Assembly (NCBI GenBank): GCA_038874655.1
Contig: JAVZBY010000002.1
Span: forward strand, 210,044 to 274,043
Length of the DNA stretch: 64,000 nucleotides
Source of the DNA: Candidatus Woesearchaeota archaeon
GTDB lineage: Archaea; Nanobdellota; Nanobdellia; Woesearchaeales; GW2011-AR15
Direction: 5' to 3'
Every line of letters begins with the position of its first letter. Positions within the stretch are counted from its first letter, which is position 1. This document shows, piece after piece, positions 3,358-60,777 of the stretch. A model generated the notes under the pieces. The model saw only the letters and a list, made by a program, of their open reading frames with translations. It was not told the DNA's origin and did no database searches. The position numbers were made by a program, and so were the translations under genes.

Positions 3358-5472
3358 TTAGCTTATACTTTTTTCTTCTTGTACATTAGTTATATGCTTA
3401 ATTTTCTTTAAAATATCTATAGTCTTTATAAGTTCTTCATTACTTTCTGCTTTTATTTTTAAAGATATTAAAATTGTTTTTTTATGTGGTTTTAAATTAA
3501 TAGACAGAACATTAATCTTAAAATTACTTAACTGATTTAAAATATCCTCAACAATTCCTAATTTATCTTCAACATAAACATTGATTGTTTTAATCTGTTC
3601 TTTTGGCACATTCCAACAGACATTTACTTTTTTAGTTTTATCTAACGCGTGTATATTTGGACATTTCTCTTTATGCACTGAAATTGTACCATCTTTCATT
3701 CTATAAGCAACAATGGCATCATTAAACTGAGGATTACAGCATTTAGATAACTTTAATTGTCCCTTTTCCTCACAATATATATATTTTGCCAAATTAATTT
3801 TATCTTGCTCTTCTCTTAATTGTTTAGGATCTCGCTCTATTTCAATTCCCAATGCACTTCTAATCTTTTGTTTAGCTTTATTTGTCACAACAAAACTGAG
3901 CCAATTTCTTGATGGTTTTGCGTTTGGATTAGTAATAATATAAACAACATCCCCGCTTTTTAATTTATAATCCAATGGAACCAATTTCTTATTAACTTGT
4001 GCTTTTGAACAAGTTTCTCCTATTTTTGAATGAACTTCAAAAGCAAAATCAACAGGAGTGGCATTTTCAGGTAAAATTATAGGATCTCCTTTAGGTGTAA
4101 AAACAACAATCTCATTCTCAAACAAATCAACCTTTAAAGAATCTAAAAATTCACTAGGAGCATTCTTTTTCCATTCTAAAACTTGTTCAAGCCAAGCAAT
4201 TCTTTTATCAAAAGCTTTATCTCTCTCAGTTCCTTTATAACGCCAGTGTGCAGCAACCCCATATTTAGCTACTTGATGCATTTCTAGAGTTCTTATTTGA
4301 ACTTCACAAATAGTATTAAAAGGAGTTACAACATCAGTGTGTAATGATTGATAACCATTTGACTTTGGAACTGCAATATAATCTTTAAATCTACCTGGAA
4401 TTGGTTTCCATAATTGATGTATCTCAGCTAAAACCCTATAACAATCTGGTATAGTTTTAACAATAATTCTGACAGCAATTAAATCATAAATCTCTTCAAA
4501 GCTTCTTTTTTCTAATATCATCTTCCTATAAATGCTATAAAAATACTTTGCTCTACCACTAACTTCTAAAAACTCAATATTAGATTCATTTAATTTCTTT
4601 TTAATCATATCCATAATAAGCTTTGCTTTTTTTTCTCTTTCAGCTCTTTTTTCATTAACTTTATTTTTTATATATTGATAAATATCTGGTTTTAAATACC
4701 TCAGAGATAAATCTTCCAATTCACCTTTCAAATTATACAATCCTAATTTATGAGCAATTGGAGCATAAATCTCTAGAGTTTCTTTAGCAATTCTTTGCTG
4801 TTTATCTTCTCTTAAATATTTCAATGTTCTCATATTGCTTAATCTGTCAGCCAATTTAATTAAAATAACTCTAAAATCTTTTATAGTAGCTAAAAGAAGT
4901 TTTCTCCAATTTTCAGCTGTATAATCCTCTGGACTTTCAAAACTAGCTTTGTTTGTTTTTGTTTCTCCTTCAACTAAAGAAGCAACTTCTTCGCCAAACT
5001 CTTTTTTTATATCCTCTAAATTATATTCTGTTTCTTCAACAATGTCATGAAGCAAAGCAGCACATATAGTAGCAGTATCAGGCTTATACTCTAAAAGAAT
5101 TTTAGCAACAGAAACAGGATGCTCGAAATAATCTTTTCCAGATTCTCTTTTTTGTCCTTGATGGGCTTTTCTTGCAAAATTATATGCTTTTTCAATGAGC
5201 TTTAAATCTGCTTTTTTATCATAAGAAGCAACCTCATTTAAAATAAACTTTAATTCTTTATCAAAATCCATAGGGATATCCTTTCTTTCAATTTCATCTA
5301 AAATTAAATCAACTTCATCTTTTTCTTTTAATAGATTATCATTCTCATTATTATTTTGGCTATTATTTAAACTATTATTTTCCTTATTTAATTCAGATTT
5401 ATTAATTTCTTTTATCTCATCTATGTTATTACTTATACTTTTATTTAAATCATTGTTCATATAAATAGGCAT
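3358..5472 (-). CDS. rel: Long RelA/SpoT homologue, (p)ppGpp synthetase/hydrolase (HD-SYNTH-TGS-ZFD-ACT)
   Basis: AHQGQKRESG, ALLHDIVEET, IKLADRLSNMRTL, RFKDYIAVPKSNGYQSLH, EVQIRT, TGS VFTPKGD...TPVDFAFEVH, SKCCNP and an ACT-like C-terminus. Confidence 0.95.
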   Translation of the reverse strand: MPIYMNNDLNKSISNNIDEIKEINKSELNKENNSLNNSQNNNENDNLLKEKDEVDLILDEIERKDIPMDFDKELKFILNEVASYDKKADLKLIEKAYNFARKAHQGQKRESGKDYFEHPVSVAKILLEYKPDTATICAALLHDIVEETEYNLEDIKKEFGEEVASLVEGETKTNKASFESPEDYTAENWRKLLLATIKDFRVILIKLADRLSNMRTLKYLREDKQQRIAKETLEIYAPIAHKLGLYNLKGELEDLSLRYLKPDIYQYIKNKVNEKRAEREKKAKLIMDMIKKKLNESNIEFLEVSGRAKYFYSIYRKMILEKRSFEEIYDLIAVRIIVKTIPDCYRVLAEIHQLWKPIPGRFKDYIAVPKSNGYQSLHTDVVTPFNTICEVQIRTLEMHQVAKYGVAAHWRYKGTERDKAFDKRIAWLEQVLEWKKNAPSEFLDSLKVDLFENEIVVFTPKGDPIILPENATPVDFAFEVHSKIGETCSKAQVNKKLVPLDYKLKSGDVVYIITNPNAKPSRNWLSFVVTNKAKQKIRSALGIEIERDPKQLREEQDKINLAKYIYCEEKGQLKLSKCCNPQFNDAIVAYRMKDGTISVHKEKCPNIHALDKTKKVNVCWNVPKEQIKTINVYVEDKLGIVEDILNQLSNFKINVLSINLKPHKKTILISLKIKAESNEELIKTIDILKKIKHITNVQEEKSIS

Positions 5473-14803: not shown

Positions 14804-14945
14804 GCGGATGTGCCGGAGTGGTCAAACGGGATAGGCTTAGGTGTGATGAGCCATATACTAAATTTTTAAATCAAAAAATAAGGGCAATGACATTAAGACA
14901 CCTATTGGCTTAGTGCCTGCGCAGGTTCGAACCCTGCCGTCCGCA
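14804..14945 (+). tRNA. tRNA-Leu(TAG) with a 58-nt intron (14842-14899)
   Basis: Acceptor GCGGATG/CGTCCGC, anticodon stem ATAGG/CCTAT, canonical BHB (CTTA/TAAG helix, 3-nt bulges), variable arm, GGTTCGAACC T-arm. Confidence 0.92.
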
Positions 14946-46535: not shown

Positions 46536-48656
46536 ATGATGAATTCAAAAGAAGAAAAACAATATGATTTAAGAAAGCAAGAAAATTCAAACAATAAATA
46601 TGAAAAAACAAAAGAGTCTTTTTCTGAAGGTCAAAGTCAGCAAAATATCCCATTAACTTTAAATGATTTAGACCTATCAAAATTAAACTTACCAAAAGAA
46701 ACTAAAGAAAGATTAGAAGAAATAAAGAAAAAATTAGAGAGATTTCAAAAAGAGGTTTTAGAAAAATTTGATAAATATATAATGGGAATAGCATTATTAC
46801 CTCCTAGAAAACAAGGAGCACAAAATCCTTTAGGTAATTTGCCTTTACCTTTGCCTAATATACCAAATTTACCGAATTTTGGATTACCAAATCAAAATTT
46901 ACCAGGATTATCACCATTAATTCCAGGAATACCAAATTTTATGCCATTTACGCAATCAACTTTACAAACACCAGCTAATTTACCAAATTTAAACAATTCA
47001 CCTACTTTAAATCCAACACAAGGTCCTGTAGTACAAGAAAATAAAAATGAACTTAGAACATTAGTTTTAGTAGATGATAGTGATAGTCAAAAGATGACTA
47101 AAATAGAATTAAAAGCAAAATTATCTCAAATCATAATAGGAATTGCAAATAATATTGACAAAAACATTTGGGTTGAAACCTTATTGTTAAGTGAATTATG
47201 GGAAAATTGTTATGATGGTAAATATGAAACATTAAGTTTAATAGCTTCTGGAACACCTGTTTATGATACAGGGATGTTAGCAGCAATAAAAATAGCAGAA
47301 GTCCATAAGCAAATGGTTTTAGCAAAGTTTGAAAAATATATTGTTTGTTATGTTCTAGCTGGTAGCCTAGTTCAAGGAAAAGCAACAAAAGATTCTGATA
47401 TTGATGTTTTTGTAGTAATTGATGATACCGATGTTAAAAAAATGTCTAGATTTGAGTTAAAAGAAAAATTAAGAGCAATCATTATAGGAATGGGTTTAGA
47501 AGCAGGAGAACTAACAGGAATAAGAAATAAAATTAACATTCAAGTTTATATCTTAACAGATTTCTGGGAAAACATAAAAGAAGCAAATCCAATAATCTTT
47601 ACATTTTTAAGAGATGGTATTCCTTTTTATGACAGAGGAATTTTCATGCCTTGGAAACAATTGTTAAAAATGGGTAAAATAAAACCAAGTCAAGAGGCAA
47701 TTGATATTTTTATGCAATCAGGCGATCAATTAATGAAAACAGTTGATTTTAAATTAAAAACAATAGGTATGGAAGATACATTTTATGCAATATTAACTCC
47801 AAGTCAAGCAGCAATTATGTTATATGGTATTGCTCCTCCAACACCAAAAGAAACACCAGAAATAATGAGAGAAATTTTCGTTAAAAAAGAAAAATTACTA
47901 GAAGAAGAATATGTGGAAATTTTAGAAAAGAACATAAAAATTAGAAAAGACTTAGAACATGGAACAAAAAAAGAATTAACAGGAAAAGAAGTTGATGAAT
48001 TAGTTGAAAATGCAAAAAAATACTTAAAAAGAATTGAGAAATTATTTAAGCAAATAGAAAAAGTAAAAGAAGAAGAATCTCTTATTAATACTTATGAGAC
48101 AACATTAACAATTGTAAAAGATGTCTTAAAATTAGAGGGCATAGAAAAAATAAAAGAAAAAGAAGTTTTGGAATTATTTGAAACAGCTTTAATAGATACA
48201 GGAAAAATACCTCATAAATATTTGAGAGAATTAAAAGATATCATAAAAGCAAAAGAAGATTATGATAATGGCAAATTAACAAAAACAGATATTTCAAAAG
48301 TTAATAAATCAAGTAAGGAATTTCATAATTTCTTAATAGAATACATACATAAAAAAAGAGGCGCAGAATTAGAAAAAGCAAAAATTAAAGTAAAATATGG
48401 TGATAAATTTGGTGAAGTTATTTTACTAGACAAAGTAGCATTTATAATACATGATATAGACTCAAAAGATAAAAAAATTAGTAAAGCAGACCTAGAAAAT
48501 GGTAATTTAATAAATATAAGAGAGACTACACAAGAAGAATTAGAAAAAGCATTGGCAGAAATGAAAATTCCAGAAAATGTATTTTTAAAAAATAATTTAT
48601 TTAACAATTTAAGTGAATTATTTGGTAATGATGTTGAGATATTAGTAAAAAATTAG
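46536..48656 (+). CDS. Tandem nucleotidyltransferase-HEPN multidomain protein
   Basis: Degenerate first NT domain with a Pro/Asn/Leu insertion; second NT domain LAGS...SDIDVFVVIDD; HEPN with RKDLEH. Confidence 0.8.
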   Translation: MMNSKEEKQYDLRKQENSNNKYEKTKESFSEGQSQQNIPLTLNDLDLSKLNLPKETKERLEEIKKKLERFQKEVLEKFDKYIMGIALLPPRKQGAQNPLGNLPLPLPNIPNLPNFGLPNQNLPGLSPLIPGIPNFMPFTQSTLQTPANLPNLNNSPTLNPTQGPVVQENKNELRTLVLVDDSDSQKMTKIELKAKLSQIIIGIANNIDKNIWVETLLLSELWENCYDGKYETLSLIASGTPVYDTGMLAAIKIAEVHKQMVLAKFEKYIVCYVLAGSLVQGKATKDSDIDVFVVIDDTDVKKMSRFELKEKLRAIIIGMGLEAGELTGIRNKINIQVYILTDFWENIKEANPIIFTFLRDGIPFYDRGIFMPWKQLLKMGKIKPSQEAIDIFMQSGDQLMKTVDFKLKTIGMEDTFYAILTPSQAAIMLYGIAPPTPKETPEIMREIFVKKEKLLEEEYVEILEKNIKIRKDLEHGTKKELTGKEVDELVENAKKYLKRIEKLFKQIEKVKEEESLINTYETTLTIVKDVLKLEGIEKIKEKEVLELFETALIDTGKIPHKYLRELKDIIKAKEDYDNGKLTKTDISKVNKSSKEFHNFLIEYIHKKRGAELEKAKIKVKYGDKFGEVILLDKVAFIIHDIDSKDKKISKADLENGNLINIRETTQEELEKALAEMKIPENVFLKNNLFNNLSELFGNDVEILVKN

Positions 48657-49443: not shown

Positions 49444-49486
49444 AATTTATTTTTTGAAATATTTTATTTTACTTATTATTACTCTT

Positions 49487-49509
49487 AAATAACAATATCT
49501 TTAAATATA
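49487..49509 (+). promoter_or_regulatory. Archaeal BRE/TATA promoter
   Basis: AAATAACAATA-tc-TTTAAATATA, with the TATA 30 nt before the ATG; same motif and spacing at 52932-52954. Confidence 0.65.
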
Positions 49510-49529
49510 ATTTATTTTTTTTTTAACTT

Positions 49530-51125
49530 ATGTCATTAGAGGAAAGAGTTGCAAAAGCAGCATTAAAAATTATAGGTAAAACTATAAGAAATTTAGTTAT
49601 TGGAGGGACAATAGCAGTAGGATTATTATATGGTGGTTATAGGTTAGGTTTGATTAAAGTTCCTTTATTAGATCAATATAATCAACCATCAATATCAACT
49701 GTTGAACAGATGCAAAAGCAATTTTCTCAAGAAATAGAAAGTTTAGGAAATTTAATGACAGGAAATTGGGACTATGGTAATAGTCAAGAAGTAACATTAC
49801 CAAGTGGACAAACAGTTGAATTAAAACAATTAGAACCAATTACTTACAATGTAATAGATATATTTAACAGTTCTGCTCAACAAAGTATACCTATTGCAAT
49901 AAGTAGCAGTAATCCTGGTGCTTGTCAACAACCTTCTTTATGTATAATTTTTTATACAAATATACCTACACAACCACAAAATTATTTTTTTTTACCTTCA
50001 TTTGCAAACACTATTCTAAGTTATTGGAAAGGTGATATTGGACTTTTAGATTTTTTGAATAATTTATATAAATCACCAATCCCGGGCTTAAAAGATATAT
50101 TAGATTCATTTAATTTATTAATAGTTAATTTAAAGGGTGGGGAAGAAATTAAATTTGTAACTTTAATTCAGCCAAATGGTAACATAAATTTACAAGAAAT
50201 TGGAAGTACAGAAATTAATGAGATAGCATTACAGAATGGAAAAAATTATTATGAGATTCCTGGTGTTGTTTTAGAAACAAAAGTAGGTTTTCCTTTAAGT
50301 AGTATATCTGCAAACACAACTGATGCTTATAATGGAAATGCTATTATCTCTTTTCAAACATTAACTGTATTACCTAAAAATCTAAGACCTGAAACTTATT
50401 TTTCAAAACCTGCTTCCACTCCGGAAGAACATGAAAAAAGATTAGTAAATTATATCCAAGAGATTAGCAAATATGGATTAGTATCAATATCAATAAAACA
50501 AGAATATGAAGCAAACAGGCAAGTTGTTATAGTTTTTCCTGAATCTGGAATTGATGTTTCACAATTTGATATGTTAGGAAGATTCCCAAATGCAGTAGAA
50601 TTAATTTATTTAAATGATGGTGATCCTAATAATCCAAATAGAAATAACGAATTATTAAAATATTGGAGAAGTTCACAAGGTCCAAATAAACAAACAACAC
50701 TGGTTTCTGCTTATCAAGATTTGAGAAATTTAAGACAAACATCTTGTCAAGTTGCTCAATGGTTAAAAGAGGATGGCTTTAATGTTCAACCAGGAATTAG
50801 TGAGCCATGTTATGAGCCAAATGGACAAATTCAAAGGCCTGATTGGCTTGATTTATATGAGCAAAGATTAAAAGAAGAACAAGCAAAATTAGTACAACAA
50901 TCAATAGAAACTATTACTAATGCTATTCCTCAAATGCCTGATTTATGCGCAATGTGGACAGACAATGCAAGAAATTTATTAGGTCCTGATTGCAAACAAA
51001 CTAATTCACAAACATTAAAAGTCTATGTTCCTGAGAATATGGTATCTTTATTACAAGCTTGGGCACAAATGTATCAAGCAACTTTTGGCGGCACAATTGA
51101 AATTTTACCATTGCCTCAACAATAG
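49530..51125 (+). CDS. Membrane-anchored Q/N/P-rich orphan protein
   Basis: N-terminal TM helix and a large external domain with several Cys. Confidence 0.75.
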   Translation: MSLEERVAKAALKIIGKTIRNLVIGGTIAVGLLYGGYRLGLIKVPLLDQYNQPSISTVEQMQKQFSQEIESLGNLMTGNWDYGNSQEVTLPSGQTVELKQLEPITYNVIDIFNSSAQQSIPIAISSSNPGACQQPSLCIIFYTNIPTQPQNYFFLPSFANTILSYWKGDIGLLDFLNNLYKSPIPGLKDILDSFNLLIVNLKGGEEIKFVTLIQPNGNINLQEIGSTEINEIALQNGKNYYEIPGVVLETKVGFPLSSISANTTDAYNGNAIISFQTLTVLPKNLRPETYFSKPASTPEEHEKRLVNYIQEISKYGLVSISIKQEYEANRQVVIVFPESGIDVSQFDMLGRFPNAVELIYLNDGDPNNPNRNNELLKYWRSSQGPNKQTTLVSAYQDLRNLRQTSCQVAQWLKEDGFNVQPGISEPCYEPNGQIQRPDWLDLYEQRLKEEQAKLVQQSIETITNAIPQMPDLCAMWTDNARNLLGPDCKQTNSQTLKVYVPENMVSLLQAWAQMYQATFGGTIEILPLPQQ

Positions 51126-51249
51126 TCAATCAATTAAAGTATTTTTTCTTCTCTTCATATTAATAAAATAAAGTTAAAAAACAAATACTTATAATGTTAT
51201 TACTAATAAATAGTAAAATTTATATAATGGTTTTTATTTTTTTAAAATA

Positions 51250-52920
51250 ATGAAAAGAATTAAAGGATATTATAATTCTAGCAATAAAGGAGTAGAATCA
51301 AGATTATTGCAACCTTTGAGAGTAAAACCAAAAAGAAGAGAAAAGCAATCAAAAGAACAATTAATAAAGAGAGACCATTTACCAATAAGAATTGAGAATC
51401 CTCCTTATGAAATACAAGGTAATTTAAATCAATGGTTATATTCTTGGGCTTTATATTTAAATGAAAATTTGATTAATTTAGTTTGTGAAATAACAAATAC
51501 AACACAACCACCAGGAGATATAAATGAAATAATTAGTAATACCCAATTAAATATGGAAGAGGTTATTGAAAGATTATTAAATTTTAGAGAAAATTTACCA
51601 AAACCACCAGAATTTTTAAGATCTTATTTAACAGACCAACAAAAAAGAAAACATCAAAGATGGATTAATTATTATAATGAAAGATGGAAAAATGCAAGAA
51701 ATACTGTTGATAATTTATTATATGGTTATGGACTCTTTGAATGGAGAAACTTTGCAAATGCATTTAATAAATTTTATAATCCTCACCAGACTAATTTACA
51801 AATACAAAATCCAGAGCATAATCAAAAATTTAATAATATATACAACCACTTTTTTAATTGTTTAAAAATAAACCTAAGCCTTGCCTCAAGAAATAATATA
51901 AGATATAGGGGTATAAATTATGCAGAAAAAAGCAGAAATAACTTATTAAACTTAGTTGATATTTATCACCAAAGAATTTTGCCTGAAGGAATTAAATTGA
52001 ATAAATTAACTTTAGATAATTTCTTTGATGTTTTTGATGCTATATTGGATGAACATTCTTTAAGAAGGGAAAAAGGACAAAATAAACATTTCTTAGAGGA
52101 ATTAGCTTCAAGATTTAGTAATTATTATTTTAGTGAGTTTGCTTTTGCTTCTATGGTTTTAAATATACAAATACCAAGTCAAATATCACCAGAACAATAT
52201 GAACAGATAAAAACAAATTTAACTTCTGCATATGCTCTTGTTCATAAAGTTTTAGAAAAGGCAATTGAATTAAAAAAAAGAGAAAAACATAAAGAGTTTT
52301 ATGGAAAAATTGCTGATTTTTTTATTTCTTATGGCTTAGATATTTTAAGTAAGTATTTTTCACAATTTTTAAATTTTAATGCTGTTGATATTGAAACAGC
52401 TGTTAGCAATTATTTATTTTTAATTCAAGCTTTACCTGAAAAAAAGAAGGAGATCTCTACAATTATTGATAAAAGTTTATATTTTGAAATTCAAAGATTA
52501 ATTGATTATAATACCCAACTAAATAAAGAATTTAAACCAGAGTTTTATAATGCTGTTTTAGATTATGCAAGAAAAACAAAAAATGCATTTGATAAATTAA
52601 AAGAATATTGCCTAAATAATGAAAATAATAATGAATCTAATTTAAGCATTATTGTAAAAGGAGGAGTTTTAGGATTAACTATTCAATATATACAAATTGC
52701 AGGATTAGGTATTGTTAATAATTTGATTGAAGTTAATGAAGTTGTTCAATATATTAAAAGCATTATTGAAGAGCCTTTTTTTAATCAAGATGAGAGATTT
52801 ATGCAAAGATTTAATGATCTGTTATTACAAAGCACAACTTATTTTGCACAATTAGGTGCTAGATATCCTGAGACACATTCTAAATTTGAAGAATTTTACA
52901 CTAAATTACAAAAAGTTTAA
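51250..52920 (+). CDS. Helical orphan protein
   Basis: 556-aa ORF; TTTATATA 31 nt upstream; no signal peptide. Confidence 0.75.
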   Translation: MKRIKGYYNSSNKGVESRLLQPLRVKPKRREKQSKEQLIKRDHLPIRIENPPYEIQGNLNQWLYSWALYLNENLINLVCEITNTTQPPGDINEIISNTQLNMEEVIERLLNFRENLPKPPEFLRSYLTDQQKRKHQRWINYYNERWKNARNTVDNLLYGYGLFEWRNFANAFNKFYNPHQTNLQIQNPEHNQKFNNIYNHFFNCLKINLSLASRNNIRYRGINYAEKSRNNLLNLVDIYHQRILPEGIKLNKLTLDNFFDVFDAILDEHSLRREKGQNKHFLEELASRFSNYYFSEFAFASMVLNIQIPSQISPEQYEQIKTNLTSAYALVHKVLEKAIELKKREKHKEFYGKIADFFISYGLDILSKYFSQFLNFNAVDIETAVSNYLFLIQALPEKKKEISTIIDKSLYFEIQRLIDYNTQLNKEFKPEFYNAVLDYARKTKNAFDKLKEYCLNNENNNESNLSIIVKGGVLGLTIQYIQIAGLGIVNNLIEVNEVVQYIKSIIEEPFFNQDERFMQRFNDLLLQSTTYFAQLGARYPETHSKFEEFYTKLQKV

Positions 52921-52931
52921 TTACTACTATA

Positions 52932-52954
52932 AAATAACAATAAATTTAAATATA
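52932..52954 (+). promoter_or_regulatory. Archaeal BRE/TATA promoter
   Basis: AAATAACAATA-aa-TTTAAATATA, with the TATA 30 nt before the ATG at 52975. Confidence 0.65.
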
Positions 52955-52974
52955 TTCTTTTTTTTATCCTTAAA

Positions 52975-55110
52975 ATGCTCTTTTCATTAAAAAGAATTGT
53001 TCAAGTAGGTTTGTTATTAAGTGGATTATTTATTTCACTTTATAATACGGGTTTAGCAAACTCTTTTGATTTAATTAATCCACAATCTCAACAGCCACCT
53101 GCATGTGAAATTTTTCAAAATTATGATCCAAAATCAGCACCAACAGAAATTAACGAAATTTTTTCAGATCCTAATTTTCAAAACGCAATTTGTTCTTTAA
53201 AAGGAAGTGTGCTTATAGTTGATAGTGAAGGTAAGGAAGTAAACTATTTAGATTTTAATCCATATGGAGAGACAGGAGGATATAGATATTTAACAGTTAA
53301 ATTTCCTAAAATAGTTTTGACACCATTGATTAATTTTGAGTCAATACCTCCTTCTTTTGAAAATAAGGCAATAGGTCCATCAGGATTTCATATGGGCGCA
53401 GATTATACAAGTATTTTATATGATCCTACAGGAGAGTATACAATTATAGATTCAAATGGAAATAAAATTCCAATTAACATTCATAGAATGCAAGCATTCT
53501 TTAAAAGACCAGAGGGATTAGAAGCAACAATAGTAGAAGAAACATGGCCACAGGGTTATGGTAAAAATGGAATATTAATAAAACTTGGTAGTTATAATGA
53601 TTGGGAATTACAATTAAGAATTGGACATGGGATTTTTCCTAATCAAAATGCTTTAATTGAAGATGAAGATGAAATAAAACAAATATTAGATTATTTAAAT
53701 CAACAAATTAAAGAAAATCCAGAAAAATTTGTTCATGTAGCTGATTCAGGAATGGAAGGTGCAGCAAATGGACATCCTCATTATCATGTAGAGCTTTCTT
53801 TATTAAATCCTAAAACAGGAAGACGTGTTTTTTTAGATCCTACCTTTACTGTAATTTTAAATCAACATCCTGAAAACGTTTCTTCAATAAATAATTTAGT
53901 AGAACAAAAAAAACTTTCAGATAATGATTTAGTTAATGAATATATTGAATTTCTAAGACAAAGCCCTGAAGCAAGAGCACTTTTATTAACTATTGCGAGA
54001 AATGAAAGTGGATATAACTTTGATGCTAAAAACCCTAATTCAAGTGCTTATGGTTTTTTTCAAATTATTGATTCAACAAATCAAGAACTTAATAAAAAAG
54101 GTTTTCCAGATAATAATAATAATAAAGAAACACAATTAGCAAAAGGTGCTTATCTTTTGGAGAGTAGAATAAAATTATATACTACTAAAGACCCAACAAC
54201 ATTTTTAAAAGAATTAACAAAAGAAGAACTTATTGATTTTTTAAATAAAGAATTACAGTGTGAATGGGCAGGAACACCAGGCACTTGTTTACAATCTAGA
54301 GGTTTTAATAATCAATATTATCCAGAAAATTATGGTTTTTCATCTTGGGAAAAAGCTCAAGAAGAATTCTGGGAAACTTACAAAATACATTTAGAAATTT
54401 CTAAAAAAGGAGAAGATTTAATATCAACATTAATAGGAGAGGTTCAATTACCAAATGAAAGAGAAAGTGCATCTGAAATATCTTTAATAGATTATCTCAA
54501 ACAACATCCAGATTTAGTTTTAGTTAATAACACTTTTAGAAAACAAGGTGTAAAAGGTCCTGAAGAATGTAGAGAGGGAGAACTTTGGTTTATGGAAGGG
54601 AGTTTAAGACAAACACCTTTACCAGAAAAAGCAAATGCTTATACTTGTAATAAGGGACATTGGGACGAAATTCAAACTTTTAATCTAGAAGGTGTTAATT
54701 TAGAAGACTATACAAATAAAAGAGTACTACCTGATACACAGCAACAACAGTATAAACTTCCAGATTATTTAAGAAATAGTCTTCAAATAAGTGGTGATGG
54801 TAGTGTTATATTTAACCCAAAGGAGCAATGGTTTCCAAATTATGAACAAAATCCTTTTTCATTTTTCTTGATTCCTGAAATAGACCAAGAAGGAAAAATA
54901 CCTTTTTATCAAATACAAATTGCACCAGGTGTAATCTTAACTTTTAGAAAAGAAGAAGGCTCATTTAATCTTTCAGAAATTTTTGATTTACAAAGAGAAA
55001 TTTATTCCTCTTTAATGAATAGAGAAAATATTGAATTAAACTATGGAAGGTTAGTCAAAATTGAATTACCTTATAGTGAATTTGAAGAATTAATATTAAA
55101 AAATCCATAA
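52975..55110 (+). CDS. Secreted M23 peptidase plus lysozyme-like (lambda-R/SLT) predicted peptidoglycan hydrolase
   Basis: Signal peptide. M23 motifs: HMGAD (HxxxD), GYG, GHPHYHVE..LDP (HxH). Lysozyme-like motifs: ARALLLTIARNESG, SSAYGFFQI, EWAGTPG. Confidence 0.8.
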   Translation: MLFSLKRIVQVGLLLSGLFISLYNTGLANSFDLINPQSQQPPACEIFQNYDPKSAPTEINEIFSDPNFQNAICSLKGSVLIVDSEGKEVNYLDFNPYGETGGYRYLTVKFPKIVLTPLINFESIPPSFENKAIGPSGFHMGADYTSILYDPTGEYTIIDSNGNKIPINIHRMQAFFKRPEGLEATIVEETWPQGYGKNGILIKLGSYNDWELQLRIGHGIFPNQNALIEDEDEIKQILDYLNQQIKENPEKFVHVADSGMEGAANGHPHYHVELSLLNPKTGRRVFLDPTFTVILNQHPENVSSINNLVEQKKLSDNDLVNEYIEFLRQSPEARALLLTIARNESGYNFDAKNPNSSAYGFFQIIDSTNQELNKKGFPDNNNNKETQLAKGAYLLESRIKLYTTKDPTTFLKELTKEELIDFLNKELQCEWAGTPGTCLQSRGFNNQYYPENYGFSSWEKAQEEFWETYKIHLEISKKGEDLISTLIGEVQLPNERESASEISLIDYLKQHPDLVLVNNTFRKQGVKGPEECREGELWFMEGSLRQTPLPEKANAYTCNKGHWDEIQTFNLEGVNLEDYTNKRVLPDTQQQQYKLPDYLRNSLQISGDGSVIFNPKEQWFPNYEQNPFSFFLIPEIDQEGKIPFYQIQIAPGVILTFRKEEGSFNLSEIFDLQREIYSSLMNRENIELNYGRLVKIELPYSEFEELILKNP

Positions 55111-55143
55111 TCTTTAAATATAAAAATTTACTACCACTATAAA

Positions 55144-56706
55144 ATGACAGATTATTATTTTTTGGCAATACCTGTTGAATTAATTTTGGAAAAAAAAAAT
55201 GAATTAAATGAGCAGGATCCAGTTAAATTTAATTCACTTGACTCTTGCGTTAGTCAAGAGGAAACATTTAACTCTTGGGTTAGTGGAAGAAAAGGTGCTG
55301 GTTTAAATTTAAAACAAGATCCATATAATCTTTGGTGGAGAATATTTTCTTTGTTAAATCTTTTACCAGATAGTTTTATCCCAATAGCAACCTTAAGAGT
55401 TATTACATCTGAGAATCGAAATCCATTTTTACCAGAAAGAGGGAATTATGTTGGTGTTATAATTAAAAGTGAAGAAAAACCGACTTTTGAGTCTGATAGA
55501 ATAAAGGTATATGGCTTAGAAAGTGCTGGTATTGTAGTTGATGAAAAAGTAGATGATAAAAGAAACCCACATTTAACAATTTTACATTCTAATTCTAGTA
55601 GATTAGATAGTGGGAATGACTTACTAAATTTATTAAAAATATATGTAACTAATTTTGGGATTTCTTCTGTTAATGATGGAAATTTAGCAGAAGTTATCAA
55701 AAGAATTTTAGAAATAAATGCTGGAGTTCAAAAGAGAGATAGTGAGGGTAAGAATATTTGGCAAATAAAAGTTCCTGCCACAATAAGAGAATATGAAAAA
55801 ACTTTGAATAAAGAAGCTTATTTGTGGAATAAATTAATTGAAAATTCTAATTTTCCAATTGAATATGTTCAAACAAAAAAGCCACGAATTACTTTAAAAA
55901 GTATTGGGTTAGAATTGATTTTAAGTGAAGGAAATAAAACTTATGTAGCACTTGTTGATACTATTAGGAGCATTACAGAAAAACATGCTATTCCTTCTAT
56001 TACAATTGAAAATGGTTTTGCTTTTATTGATGTAAAAGTAGAAGATCCAAAAGATAGTTTGGGAAATAGGATTAAGGATTATTGGAATAAAGCAGAACAA
56101 TTTTTTAATGGAGTAGGTACACTTTTATTAGAATTGATAGTTGCTGGAGTAGTTTTATATTTCGGTTATCAAGCATTACAGAAAGCAGGTGTTCAAATAC
56201 CAAATATTCAAATATCAAATTATTTCTCTACACCTGCAGCAGTAGAAACAACACCTTATCCTTCAACAACACCTCAAGGTTTAGAAACTAAACTAACAGA
56301 AACACATGACCTTTATAAAGTAAAACCTACAGAAACACCTACACCTACACCTACAACATTACCCTATCCAGTACCACAATCAACACCACCATCATATAGT
56401 TTAGAGAGAGCATGCAAAAAAGAAGATGTGCCTAATGTTGTTTATGGATCTAATGGACCATTTACTTTAAAATTTGATCCAGAGGGAAATTTTGTGTTTG
56501 TAGGAAATTCGCCAAACGGAAAATTAGTAAATTTTGGTAATGCTTCTAGTGGACAACAAAATATAGCTACTAACATTAGTACGCCAGAGGGCACTGACCC
56601 TGGATCTCAACTAGTTAAGGGGTATTTAAATGCTGAAAAAATGACTATTCCAGAAGGAAGTCCTTTATCTGAGTTATACCAAAACTTACCATTTTGTGAA
56701 AAATGA
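55144..56706 (+). CDS. Single-pass membrane protein with a Pro/Thr-rich stalk
   Basis: Internal TM helix followed by TETPTPTPTT and a C-terminal domain with two Cys; TTTAAATATA 31 nt upstream. Confidence 0.75.
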   Translation: MTDYYFLAIPVELILEKKNELNEQDPVKFNSLDSCVSQEETFNSWVSGRKGAGLNLKQDPYNLWWRIFSLLNLLPDSFIPIATLRVITSENRNPFLPERGNYVGVIIKSEEKPTFESDRIKVYGLESAGIVVDEKVDDKRNPHLTILHSNSSRLDSGNDLLNLLKIYVTNFGISSVNDGNLAEVIKRILEINAGVQKRDSEGKNIWQIKVPATIREYEKTLNKEAYLWNKLIENSNFPIEYVQTKKPRITLKSIGLELILSEGNKTYVALVDTIRSITEKHAIPSITIENGFAFIDVKVEDPKDSLGNRIKDYWNKAEQFFNGVGTLLLELIVAGVVLYFGYQALQKAGVQIPNIQISNYFSTPAAVETTPYPSTTPQGLETKLTETHDLYKVKPTETPTPTPTTLPYPVPQSTPPSYSLERACKKEDVPNVVYGSNGPFTLKFDPEGNFVFVGNSPNGKLVNFGNASSGQQNIATNISTPEGTDPGSQLVKGYLNAEKMTIPEGSPLSELYQNLPFCEK

Positions 56707-58058
56707 GACTTCTAAAATCATTAGAAAATATATTAGCCACAAGCTTATTAAGCAGTGGTTTATTTTTAACTTTAAAAAATTTTGTTGATATGCAAGATTT
56801 AACACTTTTTGGATTAACTACCTTAGGTAGTTATGTTTTAGTTAAAGGATATAACTATTTAAAACCAGAAGCAAATTTTTCAAAAATAGCATTTTCATCT
56901 GTTTTAATTTTAGGACAATTATTTTCTAGATTACTTCCTGGATATGATTTTAATATAAATGAAAGAGTAATAACAGAACAAAATAAACCAACTATTTCAG
57001 CAGAAACTAATTCACAAATTAATACTATTTATTTACCTGTTGTATTGAATAATGCTAAAGAGGGAGATTTTTTTTATAATGAAAAGAGTTTAGAAGGTAT
57101 TCCGATTACAGAAGTTCCTCCAATTCAAACTACTACAAAACCTACTGAAACTTTAATTCCTGTTATGCAAACTCAAATGCAAAAACCACAAAACACACCT
57201 ACAATTACACCAACACCTTATTCTTGTAAAGATTATTCTTCACAAGGTTTTTCAGTAATTTCAAAAGGTATTTGGTATAAAAAAGTGCCTTTTACAACAA
57301 ATAGTGAAAATGAATATGTCGGGACAGCATGTTATTTAAAAAATTGTAATTATCATCTTTTAATAGTTGATTTAAATCAAAATGGAATTACAGTAACTTC
57401 TGATATTTTTGGTTATGGAAGAACAACAAAAGAATTTGTAACTAGTAAGAATGGTGGAAATGAAAATATAATTTTAGGCATTAGTGGAGATGAATGGGAT
57501 GAAAGAAGTAATTCCTTTAAACCTCTGGGACTTCATGTTTATAATGGAAAAATCTTAAATCCTCCTAGTGAAGAGCAATGGTCTCCTGTTTTATATGTTT
57601 TTAAAGATGGACATGTTGAAATAGGATATGAAAAAGATTTTGAATCAATACAAGAAGATATTTTGCATGCAATCTCAGGTATTTCTTTAATTGTTGAAAA
57701 TGGATTACCAAATCCAGAAAAATTTAATAATCCAAAATCCTCTTATAATTCAATAGTACCAAGATCAGCAATAGGCATAAGTAGTGATGGAAAAACTTTA
57801 TTTGTCTTTGTAAGCGATGTTGTTTTCCAAAGTGGCTATCAAGAAGGCATGACATTAAGATTTGTAGCAGAAAGGTTAGCTGAATTAGGTGCAAAAAGAG
57901 CTTTTACATTATCAAGTGGAGGGGGTTCTAGTTTTTTTTCAGAAGAAGGATATAAAAACTATGTTTCATTAGCATCTGGTTCTTCTGAGCAAGTAAGGTC
58001 TAATAATATTGGAATTTTTCCTTATGAAAATGGTAGTTGTGTTGATTTTTTAAAATAA
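56703..58058 (+). CDS. Membrane-anchored phosphodiester glycosidase (NAGPA-like) protein
   Basis: GLHVYNG, PRSAIG...G.TL..L..LGA..A..L.SGGGSS motifs; N-terminal TMs and P/T stalk; ATGA overlap with the upstream gene. Confidence 0.8.
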   Translation: MRLLKSLENILATSLLSSGLFLTLKNFVDMQDLTLFGLTTLGSYVLVKGYNYLKPEANFSKIAFSSVLILGQLFSRLLPGYDFNINERVITEQNKPTISAETNSQINTIYLPVVLNNAKEGDFFYNEKSLEGIPITEVPPIQTTTKPTETLIPVMQTQMQKPQNTPTITPTPYSCKDYSSQGFSVISKGIWYKKVPFTTNSENEYVGTACYLKNCNYHLLIVDLNQNGITVTSDIFGYGRTTKEFVTSKNGGNENIILGISGDEWDERSNSFKPLGLHVYNGKILNPPSEEQWSPVLYVFKDGHVEIGYEKDFESIQEDILHAISGISLIVENGLPNPEKFNNPKSSYNSIVPRSAIGISSDGKTLFVFVSDVVFQSGYQEGMTLRFVAERLAELGAKRAFTLSSGGGSSFFSEEGYKNYVSLASGSSEQVRSNNIGIFPYENGSCVDFLK

Positions 58059-58120: not shown

Positions 58121-58636
58121 ATGGACACAAGTTTAGCAGATTATAGTAAATATGGATTTCATAGAATAATTAGGTATAGTGGTGTTTTTGATTTTGATGG
58201 TTTCTATAAATTTATGGTTAAATGGATTAAAGATCATGATTTTGATTTTTATGAAACAAAAATCATTGATAAAAGTCCCTATAGAATTTATAAAATGATG
58301 GGTAGAAAAAAAATTAGTTTTTATTGTATGTTTCAATTATTACCAGAAATATGGTTATGGGATGCAAAACCTGTTGAAGTTTTTAAGGATGGTAAATTAA
58401 AACATTTAACAGAAGCAAGGATGAAAGTTGTTATTAATGGTGGCTATATTCTTGATTATGATGGTGATTTTGAAAAAGATGAAGGAAAAAAGAAAATGGA
58501 AAACTTTCTCAATAATAAAATCCTATACCATGAAACATTATTAAAATATTTTGATTATTTAGATTATTACTTATATGGTTTTATGCAAGATGTAAAAAAA
58601 TATTTAGAAATGGAAACAGCAACAAACGCTTATTAA
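58121..58636 (+). CDS. Hypothetical protein, paralog 1 of tandem triplet
   Basis: YSGVFDF..FY..M..W motif shared with the two downstream genes. Confidence 0.8.
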   Translation: MDTSLADYSKYGFHRIIRYSGVFDFDGFYKFMVKWIKDHDFDFYETKIIDKSPYRIYKMMGRKKISFYCMFQLLPEIWLWDAKPVEVFKDGKLKHLTEARMKVVINGGYILDYDGDFEKDEGKKKMENFLNNKILYHETLLKYFDYLDYYLYGFMQDVKKYLEMETATNAY

Positions 58637-58672
58637 AAAATCATGATTTAAGATAAAACTAAAAAAAAGAAA

Positions 58673-59188
58673 ATGGTAGAATTTTATACACCAGTTGTTG
58701 GAGAAACATTAAACTTTGAAGGATTATTTAGTATGAGAGAAGTATTTAGAATCATAGATAAATATTATAGGACAAAAGGTTTTGATAAAAAAATAATATT
58801 TGATGAAGAATATAACACAGAAAAAGGTAAATATGTTCATGTAAAAGCAGAGTACTATAAAAAAACAGATTCTTATGTAAGAATATCTAATAGATTATGG
58901 ATATATGGTTATGATTTAATTGAAGTTGAAAAAGAAGTAGATGGTCAAAAAGTAAAAACAAATCAAGGCAAACTAAATATTATTTTTGATGGTTTTGTCC
59001 AAACAAATTACTTTGGCATTTTTGATGATTCAAAACCATGGAGATTTATGTTTATGATTGCATATGAAAAATGGTTTTACAAGAGTAAAATTGAATATTG
59101 GTTAGGTGTAGTAAGACATGTAATCAATGAACTAAGAACAGAATTAGCTGGTTATCTAAACATAAACAAATTTGTTTATGAAAGATAA
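58673..59188 (+). CDS. Hypothetical protein, paralog 2 of tandem triplet
   Basis: FEGLFSM..VF..ID.Y motif. Confidence 0.8.
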   Translation: MVEFYTPVVGETLNFEGLFSMREVFRIIDKYYRTKGFDKKIIFDEEYNTEKGKYVHVKAEYYKKTDSYVRISNRLWIYGYDLIEVEKEVDGQKVKTNQGKLNIIFDGFVQTNYFGIFDDSKPWRFMFMIAYEKWFYKSKIEYWLGVVRHVINELRTELAGYLNINKFVYER

Positions 59189-59215
59189 TTATTAAAGATT
59201 AATTTTTAAATCAAA

Positions 59216-59722
59216 ATGATACGAGATGAAATTCAAGAAGCAGCGTTAGGCATGGCTGTTAATTATGAAGGTATATTTAATCTAAATGATTTACTATTTT
59301 TAATAGATTCTTTTTTTAGAAAAAGGGGTTATGTAAAAAAAGTTGAAACCCATAATGAAAGTTATACAGAAAAAGGTAGAAATCTTCTTTTAAAAATAAG
59401 ACCTTTTAAAAAAGTAAAAAATAACACATTAGAAATACAAGTTACTATGAATTTTCAAAACATTATTGAAATAACAAAAAAAATTGATAATATAAATGCT
59501 TTGCTCAATAAAGGAAAAGTAAGTATTACTATTGATGCTTTTGTATTAGAATCAAGAAGAGGTGCCTGGGATACAAGACCTGAACAAGTATTTATAAAAA
59601 CAATCTTTGACAAATTTTTATTAGGCAGCAGTGGAAAAGATTATGCAGGTATGGTAGTTGGTGAAGCAAAAGAATTAAAAAATGAAATAAATGCATTTTT
59701 AAATTTGTATAAATTCATATAA
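59216..59722 (+). CDS. Hypothetical protein, paralog 3 of tandem triplet
   Basis: YEGIFNL..LL..ID.F motif. Confidence 0.8.
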   Translation: MIRDEIQEAALGMAVNYEGIFNLNDLLFLIDSFFRKRGYVKKVETHNESYTEKGRNLLLKIRPFKKVKNNTLEIQVTMNFQNIIEITKKIDNINALLNKGKVSITIDAFVLESRRGAWDTRPEQVFIKTIFDKFLLGSSGKDYAGMVVGEAKELKNEINAFLNLYKFI

Positions 59723-59775: not shown

Positions 59776-60777
59776 ATGGAAAATAAGCTAATAGATAAAT
59801 CTAATATGATAGAAGTTTTAAGAAATTTTCCTAATATGTTTGAAGAAGCAATTAATTTAGGAGATGATATTACTTTTCCAAAAGAATTTGTTGAAAACAT
59901 TGCAATTTTAGGTATGGGTGGTAGCGGTTTCACAGGTGATTTAATAAATACTTATTTGAATGAACTTCCAATGAAAATCTTTGTAATAAAAGATTATGAT
60001 TTGCCAAATTTTATACAAAAAAAAAGCTTAGTTTTTGCCATATCTTATTCTGGAAACACAGAGGAAACAATAACAGCATATAGAGCAGCAATAAGAAGAG
60101 GTTGTAGAGTAGTTGCTATTTCTTCTGGTGGGAAATTAGAAGAATTATCTAAAATGAATAAAAACCCATACATAAAAGTTCCAAAGGGAGTTCAACCAAG
60201 ATTAGCTATTCCCTATTTACTAGTTAGTATTTTAAATGTTTTAAGTTATTCTGGAATCATTGATGAACAAGAAGAAACTATAAAAAAATTGGTTTCTTAT
60301 TTAAAAAGAATTTCAATTGAAGAAGAAGCAAAATTAATTGCAAAAAAATTAAAAAATAAAGTTCCTATAATTTATTCTTCTCAAAGATTATTTTCTATAG
60401 CTGAAAAATGGAAAACAGACATAAATGAAAATGCAAAAACCCATGCATTTTACAATGTTTTTCCTGAGTTTAATCACAATGAAATTTGTGCTTATGAAAA
60501 CAATATAACTGACTCACATATAAAAACGCATTTAATACTAATAACAGATAAAGATGATTACTTAAAAATTAAAGATAGAATTAATGTCTTTAAAAAATTA
60601 TTAAATCAATATAAAGTTAGTTTCACAGAATTAGGTTTAGTTGGAGATAATTTTCTAACTAGATTGATTGTTGGTGTTTGGACAGGATTATTTGTTTCTT
60701 ACTACTTAGCTTTAGAGTATGAGAGAGATCCTACTCCTGTTAATATAATTGAAAAATTCAAAAAAGAATTGAAATAA
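59776..60777 (+). CDS. Bifunctional phosphoglucose/phosphomannose isomerase
   Basis: GMGGSG, SYSGNTEET, QPR, NENAK and PEFNHNE motifs. Confidence 0.93.
   Translation: MENKLIDKSNMIEVLRNFPNMFEEAINLGDDITFPKEFVENIAILGMGGSGFTGDLINTYLNELPMKIFVIKDYDLPNFIQKKSLVFAISYSGNTEETITAYRAAIRRGCRVVAISSGGKLEELSKMNKNPYIKVPKGVQPRLAIPYLLVSILNVLSYSGIIDEQEETIKKLVSYLKRISIEEEAKLIAKKLKNKVPIIYSSQRLFSIAEKWKTDINENAKTHAFYNVFPEFNHNEICAYENNITDSHIKTHLILITDKDDYLKIKDRINVFKKLLNQYKVSFTELGLVGDNFLTRLIVGVWTGLFVSYYLALEYERDPTPVNIIEKFKKELK

Follow-up and report, generated by a model that had tools for sequence, protein, structure and literature searches.

A 64-kb stretch of DNA (the window), which forms the end of a 274-kb contig (its final 64 kb) from Candidatus Woesearchaeota archaeon, carries on its forward strand a gene for a modular protein of 711 residues (P0001). 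This protein was described in a first-pass annotation as a secreted M23 endopeptidase fused to a lysozyme-like domain of the phage lambda R type. The motifs quoted there and the bounds of the open reading frame (ORF) are all found in the translation of 52975..55110. HMGAD occupies residues 139-143, GHPHYHVE 266-273 and LDP 287-289; in the second half of the protein, PEARALLLTIARNESG spans residues 331-346, SSAYGFFQI 356-364 and EWAGTPG 430-436. The features of the gene and its product are the following.

52975..55110, forward strand: gene for the 711-residue protein P0001, ATG start, stop codon included, single copy in the genome
52975..53061, forward strand: Sec-type signal peptide or N-terminal anchor, residues 1-29, read from the sequence and a hydropathy scan
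53272..53859, forward strand: probable M23/LytM-like metallopeptidase domain, residues about 100-295
53389..53403, forward strand: HxGxD motif H139-M-G-A-D143, with the putative zinc ligands H139 and D143
53626..53628, forward strand: H218 (in RIGHG), putative catalytic histidine after GYG (194-196) and a beta-hairpin
53779..53787, forward strand: HxH motif H269-Y-H271, inside GMEGAANGHPHYHVE, then FLDP (286-289)
53923..54426, forward strand: SLT (GH23-type) lytic transglycosylase/muramidase module, residues 317-484, from Pfam SLT, identity to the protein P0002 and PDB profile matches
54004..54009, forward strand: catalytic Glu-Ser E344-S345, invariant in an 11-sequence alignment
54463..55107, forward strand: orphan C-terminal domain, residues about 497-711, with C532 and C558, common only to the protein P0003

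The protein as a whole stands isolated. No match to it was found in 40 relatives, phmmer against PDB sequences gave 0 matches at E <= 1, and a word-based search recovered the protein itself alone. A full-length homologue is absent from an exhaustive phmmer search of 1.84 billion representatives. Searches for related loci were equally null, for A1 in genome contigs, for P0003 and P0001 in metagenome contigs and for P0001 in viral contigs.

The secretion-type N-terminus of the first description is present. The chain opens with MLFSLKR, of which K6 and R7 are basic, and continues with a 16-residue hydrophobic run and then GLA-NS; residues 2-20 are the sole 19-mer of the whole protein above 1.6 on the Kyte-Doolittle scale. 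Six cysteines form three local pairs (44/73, 429/438 and 532/558), the second of which is kept in P0002 and the third in P0003. As the N-terminus resembles a Sec signal peptide or anchor and is accompanied by these three pairs, the protein would be exported.

The SLT module

The glycan-cleaving part of the protein is firmly placed. Pfam SLT (PF01464) covers residues 334-403 with 31.7 bits against a curated cut-off of 21.3 (E 1.2e-7), and the match is likewise above cut-off in a six-frame search of the genome. In an alignment of 11 sequences, E344 and S345 are invariant and A341, S356, A358, G360 and Q363 nearly so. When the profile of this alignment was compared with the PDB, the first matches were phage phiKZ gp144 (E 4.6e-9) and Escherichia coli Slt70 (E 9e-7), followed by C-type lysozymes. 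The aligned block of gp144, ES..SSA.G.FQ, corresponds to E344-S345 and to the S-x-A-x-G-x-x-Q block. Both motifs are common to gp144 (3bkh), Slt70 (1qsa) and the present module, about 90 residues of which can be aligned with them; in contrast to these two enzymes, it has a C-terminal extension carrying the pair C429 and C438 (QCEWAGTPGTC), common to P0002. These profile matches to solved GH23 enzymes and C-type lysozymes imply a lysozyme-like fold and, by sequence, the module is a member of the SLT/GH23 family.

The lysozyme-superfamily domain of the first-pass annotation, with its catalytic Glu-Ser and GxxQ motifs, is thus borne out, whereas its 'lambda R-type' label is not supported. The lambda R transglycosylase is a GH104 enzyme of the Phage_lysozyme family, and shares with the module the lysozyme superfamily and a catalytic Glu close to the domain start. 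No Phage_lysozyme match at E <= 1 is listed by Pfam and Phage_lysozyme2 matches weakly, below cut-off (E 0.074). Lambda lysozyme is not among the best 60 of 386 PDB matches (E <= 1), which hold GH23 enzymes and C-type lysozymes. Since its closest solved relatives are gp144 and Slt70, the module is of the SLT (GH23) type and not of the lambda R type. Look-alikes of the WASLPG motif of lambda R-type enzymes (W-P-S-L-P-G-G) occur in two phmmer matches, P0012 and P0014.

The exhaustive phmmer search returned 13 non-self matches, all but one (12/13) confined to residues 301-484. Several are long proteins with an SLT domain close to the C-terminus and resemble phage tail or tape-measure proteins. 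In PHROGs, the protein matches SLT-type families only (tail fibre, transglycosylase and tape-measure families), and no match to the module was obtained by tblastn among 50,697 phage records.

The M23-like domain

Upstream of the SLT module, residues 100-295 or so present the succession of motifs of an M23 metallopeptidase. The chain HxGxD...G-x(1-3)-HxH-[FVYIL]-[EQGK] occurs in two of the 1378 ORFs of at least 100 residues in the genome, namely this one and the only ORF with a Pfam-level M23 domain, and in 0 ORFs of each of 100 shuffled proteomes. That other ORF (G000:C1:267785-268675, minus strand, a 297-residue frame) is itself divergent, with 27.2 bits for Peptidase_M23, or 30.9 with neighbouring matches in the frame. 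In a MAFFT alignment with 21 M23 domains of relatives, H139, D143, G162, H218, H269, H271 and P289 fall in invariant or nearly invariant columns; the column of D143 is invariant, that of H139 nearly so, and H218 occupies a nearly invariant 'YxH' column. The segment GYGKNGILIKL is lined up with the GYGN-hhhh strand of M23 domains.

Comparisons with the ESM Atlas point in the same direction. Residues 95-320 obtain a feature score of 0.90 and M23 is the family of all 10 family-bearing matches (10/10), a score to be read against the 4-10 in 100 shuffled proteins that also score 0.9. All structure rows (8/8) are M23 clusters, with template modelling (TM) scores of 0.39-0.51 over residues 96-320, 7/8 of them within 96-298; the C-terminal domain, used as a control, gives mixed unrelated families at TM 0.26-0.34. 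A local hhalign comparison with the 21 M23 domains scored 19.69 (E 0.013), which 0/150 shuffles reach. Against an M23 profile of eight sequences, 13 columns are aligned at HxH with E 0.052, as compared with 0.26 and 0.62 for two control regions. In global mode, hhalign was uninformative, 34/100 shuffles having reached the observed score.

An AlphaFold2 (AF2) model driven by an M23 alignment has an overall predicted local distance difference test (pLDDT) value of 56.4, rising to 83-87 in two core hairpins and 83-84 in the strands of H218. When it was compared by VIA-align with 48,161 solved chains, the best 9/9 rows were M23/LytM (Z 5.3-6.5), and by title M23/LytM made up 19/21 of the best rows. 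The top rows comprise DipM, EnvC, StM23, lysostaphin, a Vibrio cholerae zinc peptidase (2gu1), EnpA, LytM and SpoIIQ. This result is circular and not independent, because the alignment given to the model consists of M23 sequences. The domain is about 50 residues longer than the M23 domains of relatives and includes a helix, 231-247, predicted in both AF2 models.

Other results weigh against an M23 assignment. Peptidase_M23 (PF01551) was not found by Pfam in the whole protein at E <= 1 or in its sub-segments at E <= 10. With a hidden Markov model (HMM) of eight relatives' M23 domains run with filters off over the 1378 ORFs, this ORF scored -0.4 bits (E 85), as compared with 24.1 bits for the true M23 protein of the genome. 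A phmmer search with the N-terminal domain gave no enrichment in M23 proteins, the best of which ranked 63 of 979, and 400 genomes of the order yielded no homologue of the domain (best row at chance level, E 0.005). The best of the 150 local hhalign shuffles came close to the observed score, at 19.3, and hhalign against M23 profiles aligns 13-21 columns at HxH only, with a probability of 1-3%. HxGxD and HxH are 130 residues apart, as against 83 in a typical relative's M23 domain. The AF2 model of residues 31-325 made without an alignment reaches a pLDDT of 40.6, and Foldseek on the alignment-driven model returned no M23 protein and no row below E 0.14. A point against the murein hydrolase reading as a whole is that Pfam recognised no LysM, PG_binding, SH3b or similar wall-binding domain in the protein. 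Foldseek rows obtained with the alignment-free model (tetracycline destructases and others, TM about 0.1, no M23) were discarded as noise.

These results would be expected if SLT were the sole hydrolase and residues 100-295 an unrelated orphan beta-rich domain in which M23-like motifs had arisen by chance. HMM and profile tests of the region are all negative or marginal, no independent confident structure model of it exists, the ORF was picked from a very large scan on account of these very motifs, which inflates chance matches, and shuffled proteins attain the same ESM Atlas score at the rate given above. Such a single-activity enzyme is nonetheless rather unlikely. Six ordered M23 hallmarks are in register in the MAFFT alignment, which is blind to motifs: HxGxD, G-x8-G, GYG with its hairpin, the hairpin-end His, GxxGxxxG-x-PHxHxE and the Pro column (FLDP). 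Chance did not produce the motif pattern in any shuffled proteome, the structure rows were uniformly M23 as opposed to the mixed set of the control region, and fusion to another murein hydrolase raises the prior for M23. Residues 100-295 therefore probably have the M23 fold.

Whether this fold is catalytic is a separate matter. By analogy with LytM, H139, D143 and H271 are taken to be the zinc ligands and H218 and H269 the catalytic histidines. Since all five residues used by the family are present, an active enzyme is more likely than a degenerate LytM module. In the opposite case, the domain would be a non-catalytic regulator or binding module comparable to those of EnvC, NlpD and PrgK, tuning or targeting the SLT module. 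Among the top VIA-align rows, those of DipM, EnvC and SpoIIQ are indeed LytM domains without catalytic function, and the large insertions could occlude the active-site groove. Degenerate LytM domains in general are known to have lost ligand residues. PrgK has the same LytM-then-SLT order and, according to the published passages on it, its LytM domain is degenerate and metal-free, down-regulates the SLT muramidase and has lost ligand residues (PMC11323569), whereas H139, D143, H218, H269 and H271 are all present here and the HxH block is kept in P0003. A non-catalytic LytM domain is accordingly given a low probability, below that of the chance-motif alternative.

The outcome for the dual enzyme of the first-pass annotation is consequently uneven. 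Its glycan-cleaving half is confirmed at family level, the Pfam search that it proposed having found SLT above cut-off and neither Peptidase_M23 nor Phage_lysozyme. Its peptide-cutting half is only probable: the five His/Asp residues stand in conserved columns and the ESM Atlas points to M23, but no significant HMM or profile match was obtained.

A related strain detected in the metagenomic run X4 has an in-frame 15-nt insertion behind position 53429, in the loop after HxGxD, which suggests that this loop tolerates a change of length.

Architecture and module shuffling

Two proteins give access to the history of the architecture. P0002, the nearest relative (47% identity over 331-484), has 233 residues and consists of a hydrophobic N-terminus and an SLT module, in which the QCEW..PG.C extension is conserved. 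P0003 is a 338-residue fragment starting at the position of M260. It matches residues 260-312, HxH block included (57% identity, E 3e-12), and then residues 503-642 (25%, E 3e-9). The two matched stretches are separated by 38 residues in P0003 and by 190 in the present protein, and those 190 correspond to the P0002-like SLT module. Hence the SLT cassette was inserted in a scaffold made of the M23-like and C-terminal domains. Judging from these alignments, the protein is a product of domain shuffling, with a P0002-like cassette inside a P0003-like scaffold.

The C-terminal domain belongs to no Pfam family and has no usable ESM Atlas feature match. It is probably stabilised by a disulfide, and as a candidate module it most likely sets targeting.

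An archaeal genome without recognised murein synthesis genes

The genome amounts to 1.26 Mb in 17 contigs, is 97.3% complete and 0.27% contaminated, and has a GC content of 24.5%. The archaeal setting claimed for the gene is confirmed by archaeal marker genes and by flanks syntenic with those of relatives. The window holds the archaeal row of genes for proteasome-alpha, SBDS, Rrp4, Rrp41 and Rrp42, together with a gene for an S-layer domain protein and the presumably intron-bearing tRNA described below. The 20 close relatives of an isomerase encoded beside the gene's neighbourhood come from 4 Candidatus Woesearchaeota, 3 Nanoarchaeota, 1 Archaeon GW2011_AR15, 4 records named 'archaeon', 7 Methanosarcinales and 1 bacterium (37% identity). 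The organism is read as a Woesearchaeota-type DPANN archaeon, small and of the symbiont type. The seven records titled 'uncultured Methanosarcinales archaeon' (L046-L048, L050, L054, L060 and L063) group with Woesearchaeota and Nanoarchaeota records and look like mislabels. A Methanosarcinales identity was rejected for this genome of 1.26 Mb, in which McrA was not found, both methanogen controls being positive.

Neither Mur ligases (PF08245; 12 control genomes positive) nor GT51 (PF00912; 10 control genomes positive) were found in the 97.3%-complete genome. The cell is not expected to make murein, nor pseudomurein through Mur-type ligases. Since the search of the producer's genome revealed no genes for murein synthesis, bacterial murein is the likely substrate of the protein. 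Pseudomurein, or another envelope polymer of an archaeal host, could be imagined as the target of an archaeal enzyme. This is extremely unlikely, for SLT/GH23 enzymes are generally known to cut the beta-1,4 bond between N-acetylmuramic acid (MurNAc) and N-acetylglucosamine (GlcNAc), which has no counterpart in pseudomurein. Known pseudomurein endoisopeptidases belong to another family.

Two further genes of the window are recorded here. A 704-residue long RelA/SpoT homologue with HD_4, RelA_SpoT, TGS and ACT domains is encoded at 3358-5472 on the minus strand; this is a bacterial-type architecture of (p)ppGpp synthetase/hydrolase in a DPANN archaeal genome. A transfer RNA (tRNA) of 142 nt at 14804-14945 on the forward strand was found by Rfam (43.6 bits) and missed by ARAGORN, and is for this reason presumed to bear an intron. 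Archaeal tRNAs often carry introns.

A lineage-specific island

The gene lies in the middle of a group of five genes for membrane or secreted proteins, which with its associated features comprises the following.

49530..58058, forward strand: five-gene lineage-specific island of 8,529 bp, between conserved flanks, missing in 4/4 relatives
49530-51125, 51250-52920, 52975-55110, 55144-56706 and 56703-58058, all forward strand: the island genes
56703..58058, forward strand: last island gene, 451 residues, Thr/Pro linker and NAGPA phosphodiester glycosidase domain (Pfam PF09992, E 2.7e-19)
52920..52965, forward strand: AT-rich promoter-like element (..ACTACTATAAAATAACA..TTTAAATATA..), 10-55 nt upstream of the ATG of the SLT gene; repeat families D4 and D16

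By tblastn of the window proteins, gene order is common to two genomes of the same genus (G002 and G003) and two of the same family (G005 and G011). In all four, the homologue of the gene at 46536, with that of 48751 in three, adjoins the homologues of 58121, 58673, 59216 and of the phosphoglucose isomerase at 59776, leaving a gap of about 0.06 to 1.3 kb at the island site. The exception for 48751 is G003, where no homologue was detected. With the relatives examined, the isomerase has 60-79% identity. Missing from all four genomes, the island looks like an insertion in this lineage. Its genes at 51250 and 55144 have no match in five relatives, and its NAGPA gene has a weak domain match only, elsewhere in G002. 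A second NAGPA protein is encoded in the genome itself (G000:C3:40870-41415, minus strand). None of the island proteins has a paralogue in the genome or significantly resembles any of the others. The last two genes overlap by 4 nt, and the product of 55144-56706 also has a Thr/Pro-rich linker, with TPTPTP repeats (repeat family D1).

The GC content of the island, 27.8%, exceeds that of the genome (z 2.06, top 1.4% of equal-sized windows). The island bears no mark such as an integrase, a tRNA or flanking repeats, and PHROGs gave nothing for nine neighbouring proteins. A phage or type IV secretion system context was discarded, as no such gene was recognised by Pfam or PHROGs among the window ORFs scanned, all island genes included. 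The 46-nt promoter-like element recurs upstream of gene 49530 (49475-49520, 83% identical) and, in a related form, upstream of gene 55144 (55122-55149). TTTAAATATA lies 21-30 nt upstream of the ATG at 52975, placed as the archaeal TATA box of a leaderless transcript would be.

Four metagenomic runs, all labelled hot springs metagenome, contain pieces of the region. Both island junctions are bridged without difference by contigs of run X1, possibly the source sample itself, and the pieces found in X2, a run of the same study, are identical across the island. Runs X3 and X4, from two other studies, have short pieces 90-99% alike. Some read-derived joints skip 8-11 kb; their sides measure 20-22 letters, and we regard them as artefacts of low-complexity sequence. 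No RNA run was listed among the sequencing runs, which speaks neither for nor against expression of the gene.

Both SLT and M23 are domains typical of bacteria or phages and the GC content of the island is slightly high, as a bacterial contaminant or a mis-assembly would have it. Such an origin has next to no probability, given the low contamination estimate, the archaeal markers on the same 274-kb contig, the synteny of both flanks with four relatives, the bridging contigs of X1 (with the reservation made above as to its source), the identical pieces of X2 and the similar upstream elements that precede three island genes.

The genes on either side of the island are conserved but poorly classified. 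Just upstream, 46536-48656 (forward strand) encodes 706 residues, in which a Pol-beta-type nucleotidyltransferase domain (266-315) is the only family recognised; the product is 65-76% identical in 4/4 relatives. Directly downstream, three tandem ORFs of about 170 residues (58121-59722, forward strand) without Pfam or PHROG family keep their order in 4/4 relatives, and the last two cross-match as paralogues (27-29% identity).

Proposed activity and role

From the sequence features described above, we infer the M23 fold and its activity, the export of the protein, its substrate and its biological role. The protein would be exported by way of its Sec-type signal or N-terminal anchor. The divergent M23/LytM-like domain may act as a zinc endopeptidase cutting peptide stems or cross-bridges, with zinc bound by H139, D143 and H271 and catalysis assisted by H218 and H269. 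The SLT module would cleave the MurNAc-GlcNAc glycan bond with E344 as acid/base, by either lytic transglycosylase or muramidase chemistry. Targeting could be given by the C-terminal domain or by the N-terminal 70 residues. Its likely role is an attack on bacterial walls, whether those of a host, a prey or a competitor are breached or digested, or the digestion of bacterial wall debris. The interpretation that we favour, with moderate confidence, is that of an exported modular murein hydrolase of a DPANN archaeon, acting outside the cell on bacterial peptidoglycan and not on its own envelope.

The same chemistry is compatible with nutrient scavenging, in which an auxotrophic archaeon would feed on free bacterial wall debris, digested by the enzyme together with the nearby NAGPA glycosidase. 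The small genome (1.26 Mb), the second glycan-processing enzyme in the island and the PIG-L family GlcNAc de-N-acetylase and sugar enzymes encoded in the window agree with it, and the recycling of cell material is discussed in sections of a study of DPANN archaea (PMC9723730). On the other hand, no genes for muropeptide uptake or catabolism were seen beside the gene, though no search was aimed at them, and the patchy lineage-specific distribution fits the arms-race pattern of weaponised hydrolases, as outlined in passages of another study (PMC12352652). Scavenging is thus a minority possibility, about on a par with the single-activity enzyme.

A more elaborate proposal takes the whole island as the self-contained and horizontally mobile bacterial-wall-breaching kit of an episymbiotic or predatory Woesearchaeote. 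Here the M23-like/SLT enzyme would be joined by NAGPA, stripping GlcNAc-1-phosphate-linked polymers such as teichoic acids, by three orphan membrane proteins for anchoring or delivery at the site of contact, and by the C-terminal domain as a new class of targeting domain setting the host range. If true, it would mean a Gram-positive-type bacterial host for a hot-spring DPANN archaeon. This proposal is speculative and improbable as a whole.

Comparison with known murein hydrolases

Murein hydrolases have been reported in archaea. In the relevant parts of Castelle et al. (2021; PMC8204110), DPANN extracellular murein-like transglycosylase proteins make up the family fam00969, for which binding or degradation of bacterial walls was proposed. 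For Woesearchaeota, passages of Vigneron et al. (2022; PMC9723730) describe GH23 genes from five genomes and make a case for predation. As far as these accounts describe them, such proteins share with the present one the archaeal kind, the SLT domain, the predicted extracellular location, the patchy distribution and the proposed role (PMC8204110, PMC9723730). Its genome type, SLT-like domain and extracellular prediction are those of the DPANN murein-like transglycosylases, and by these three features alone it is likened to fam00969. The published proteins reach 3,000 residues and, in the same parts of the accounts, the transglycosylase domain alone is named (PMC8204110, PMC9723730), whereas the present protein has 711 residues and, in addition, the probable M23-like and orphan C-terminal domains.

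According to the portions of Strock et al. (2025; PMC12352652) that bear on this point, modular peptidoglycan hydrolases occur in 175/3,706 archaeal genomes, prominently of Nanoarchaeota; M23 is reported in four Nanoarchaeia genomes and two halophile enzymes kill a bacterium. The M23 and PG_binding_1 protein of Halogranum salarium is, from the same portions, a secreted archaeal protein with a murein-cleaving domain, traces of shuffling and a patchy distribution, as is ours (PMC12352652). Unlike the Halogranum salarium proteins, the one described here has two predicted catalytic modules. The screen, as described there, demanded at least one catalytic domain and one recognised cell-wall-binding domain (PMC12352652), the latter being missing here. 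Such a screen would miss this protein, for want of a recognised wall-binding domain and of a Pfam match to its M23-like part.

The closest architectural analogue is PrgK of the Enterococcus faecalis pCF10 type IV secretion system, a LytM-SLT-CHAP protein in which, in the passages concerned, LytM is an inactive regulator and the 'SLT' domain a muramidase (PMC11323569); this analogue counts against our interpretation. Both proteins have an N-terminal membrane or signal segment, then a LytM/M23-type domain and then SLT, and the PrgK LytM domain (8s0u) is among the VIA-align matches (Z 4.4). PrgK differs, by the same passages, in its third domain (CHAP), its degenerate metal-free LytM and its place in a conjugation machine (PMC11323569). 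Here, by contrast, all five His/Asp residues are retained, the window ORFs scanned include no recognised secretion-system gene and the cell is not expected to have a murein wall of its own.

Within the same archaeal order, the genome G035 encodes a 522-residue SLT-M23 fusion (L012:1369-2934, minus strand), in which both domains are above Pfam cut-offs. It unites the same two domain types in one polypeptide, but in reversed order (SLT 188-336, M23 388-478), with a canonical M23 domain and without the C-terminal orphan domain. The whole-protein search gave no match in G035 at E <= 0.01. This is the only SLT-M23 fusion seen in 40 relatives, in which, at E <= 0.001, SLT occurs in 20/40 and M23 in 19/40. 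No published description of an archaeal M23 and SLT fusion was found in the main texts, although the supplementary tables of PMC12352652 and PMC8204110 may list some.

Significance

Overall, the initial observation is confirmed and its first interpretation partly supported. The gene is a further example of a published archaeal trait, as SLT proteins that are extracellular have been described from Woesearchaeota and M23 hydrolases from Nanoarchaeia. Its distinctive aspects are the very divergent probable M23 domain, the inserted SLT cassette, the orphan C-terminal domain and the location in a lineage-specific island beside a NAGPA glycosidase. The shuffling documented here is of a cassette style, an SLT module having entered a scaffold of M23-like and orphan domains. 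Domain-based surveys under-count such enzymes, since the M23-like domain escapes Pfam and no recognised wall-binding domain is present.

The island, with its neighbouring phosphodiester glycosidase, is a concrete set of genes for joint testing. If both domains are active, the protein would be a compact lysin with two activities, of hot-spring origin, and may have antibacterial use, and its C-terminal domain could help to identify the bacterial partner. Murein hydrolases in murein-free archaea are among the few genomic clues that archaea, especially those of the DPANN group, attack or live on bacteria, and the present protein extends current concepts of this relationship without changing them.

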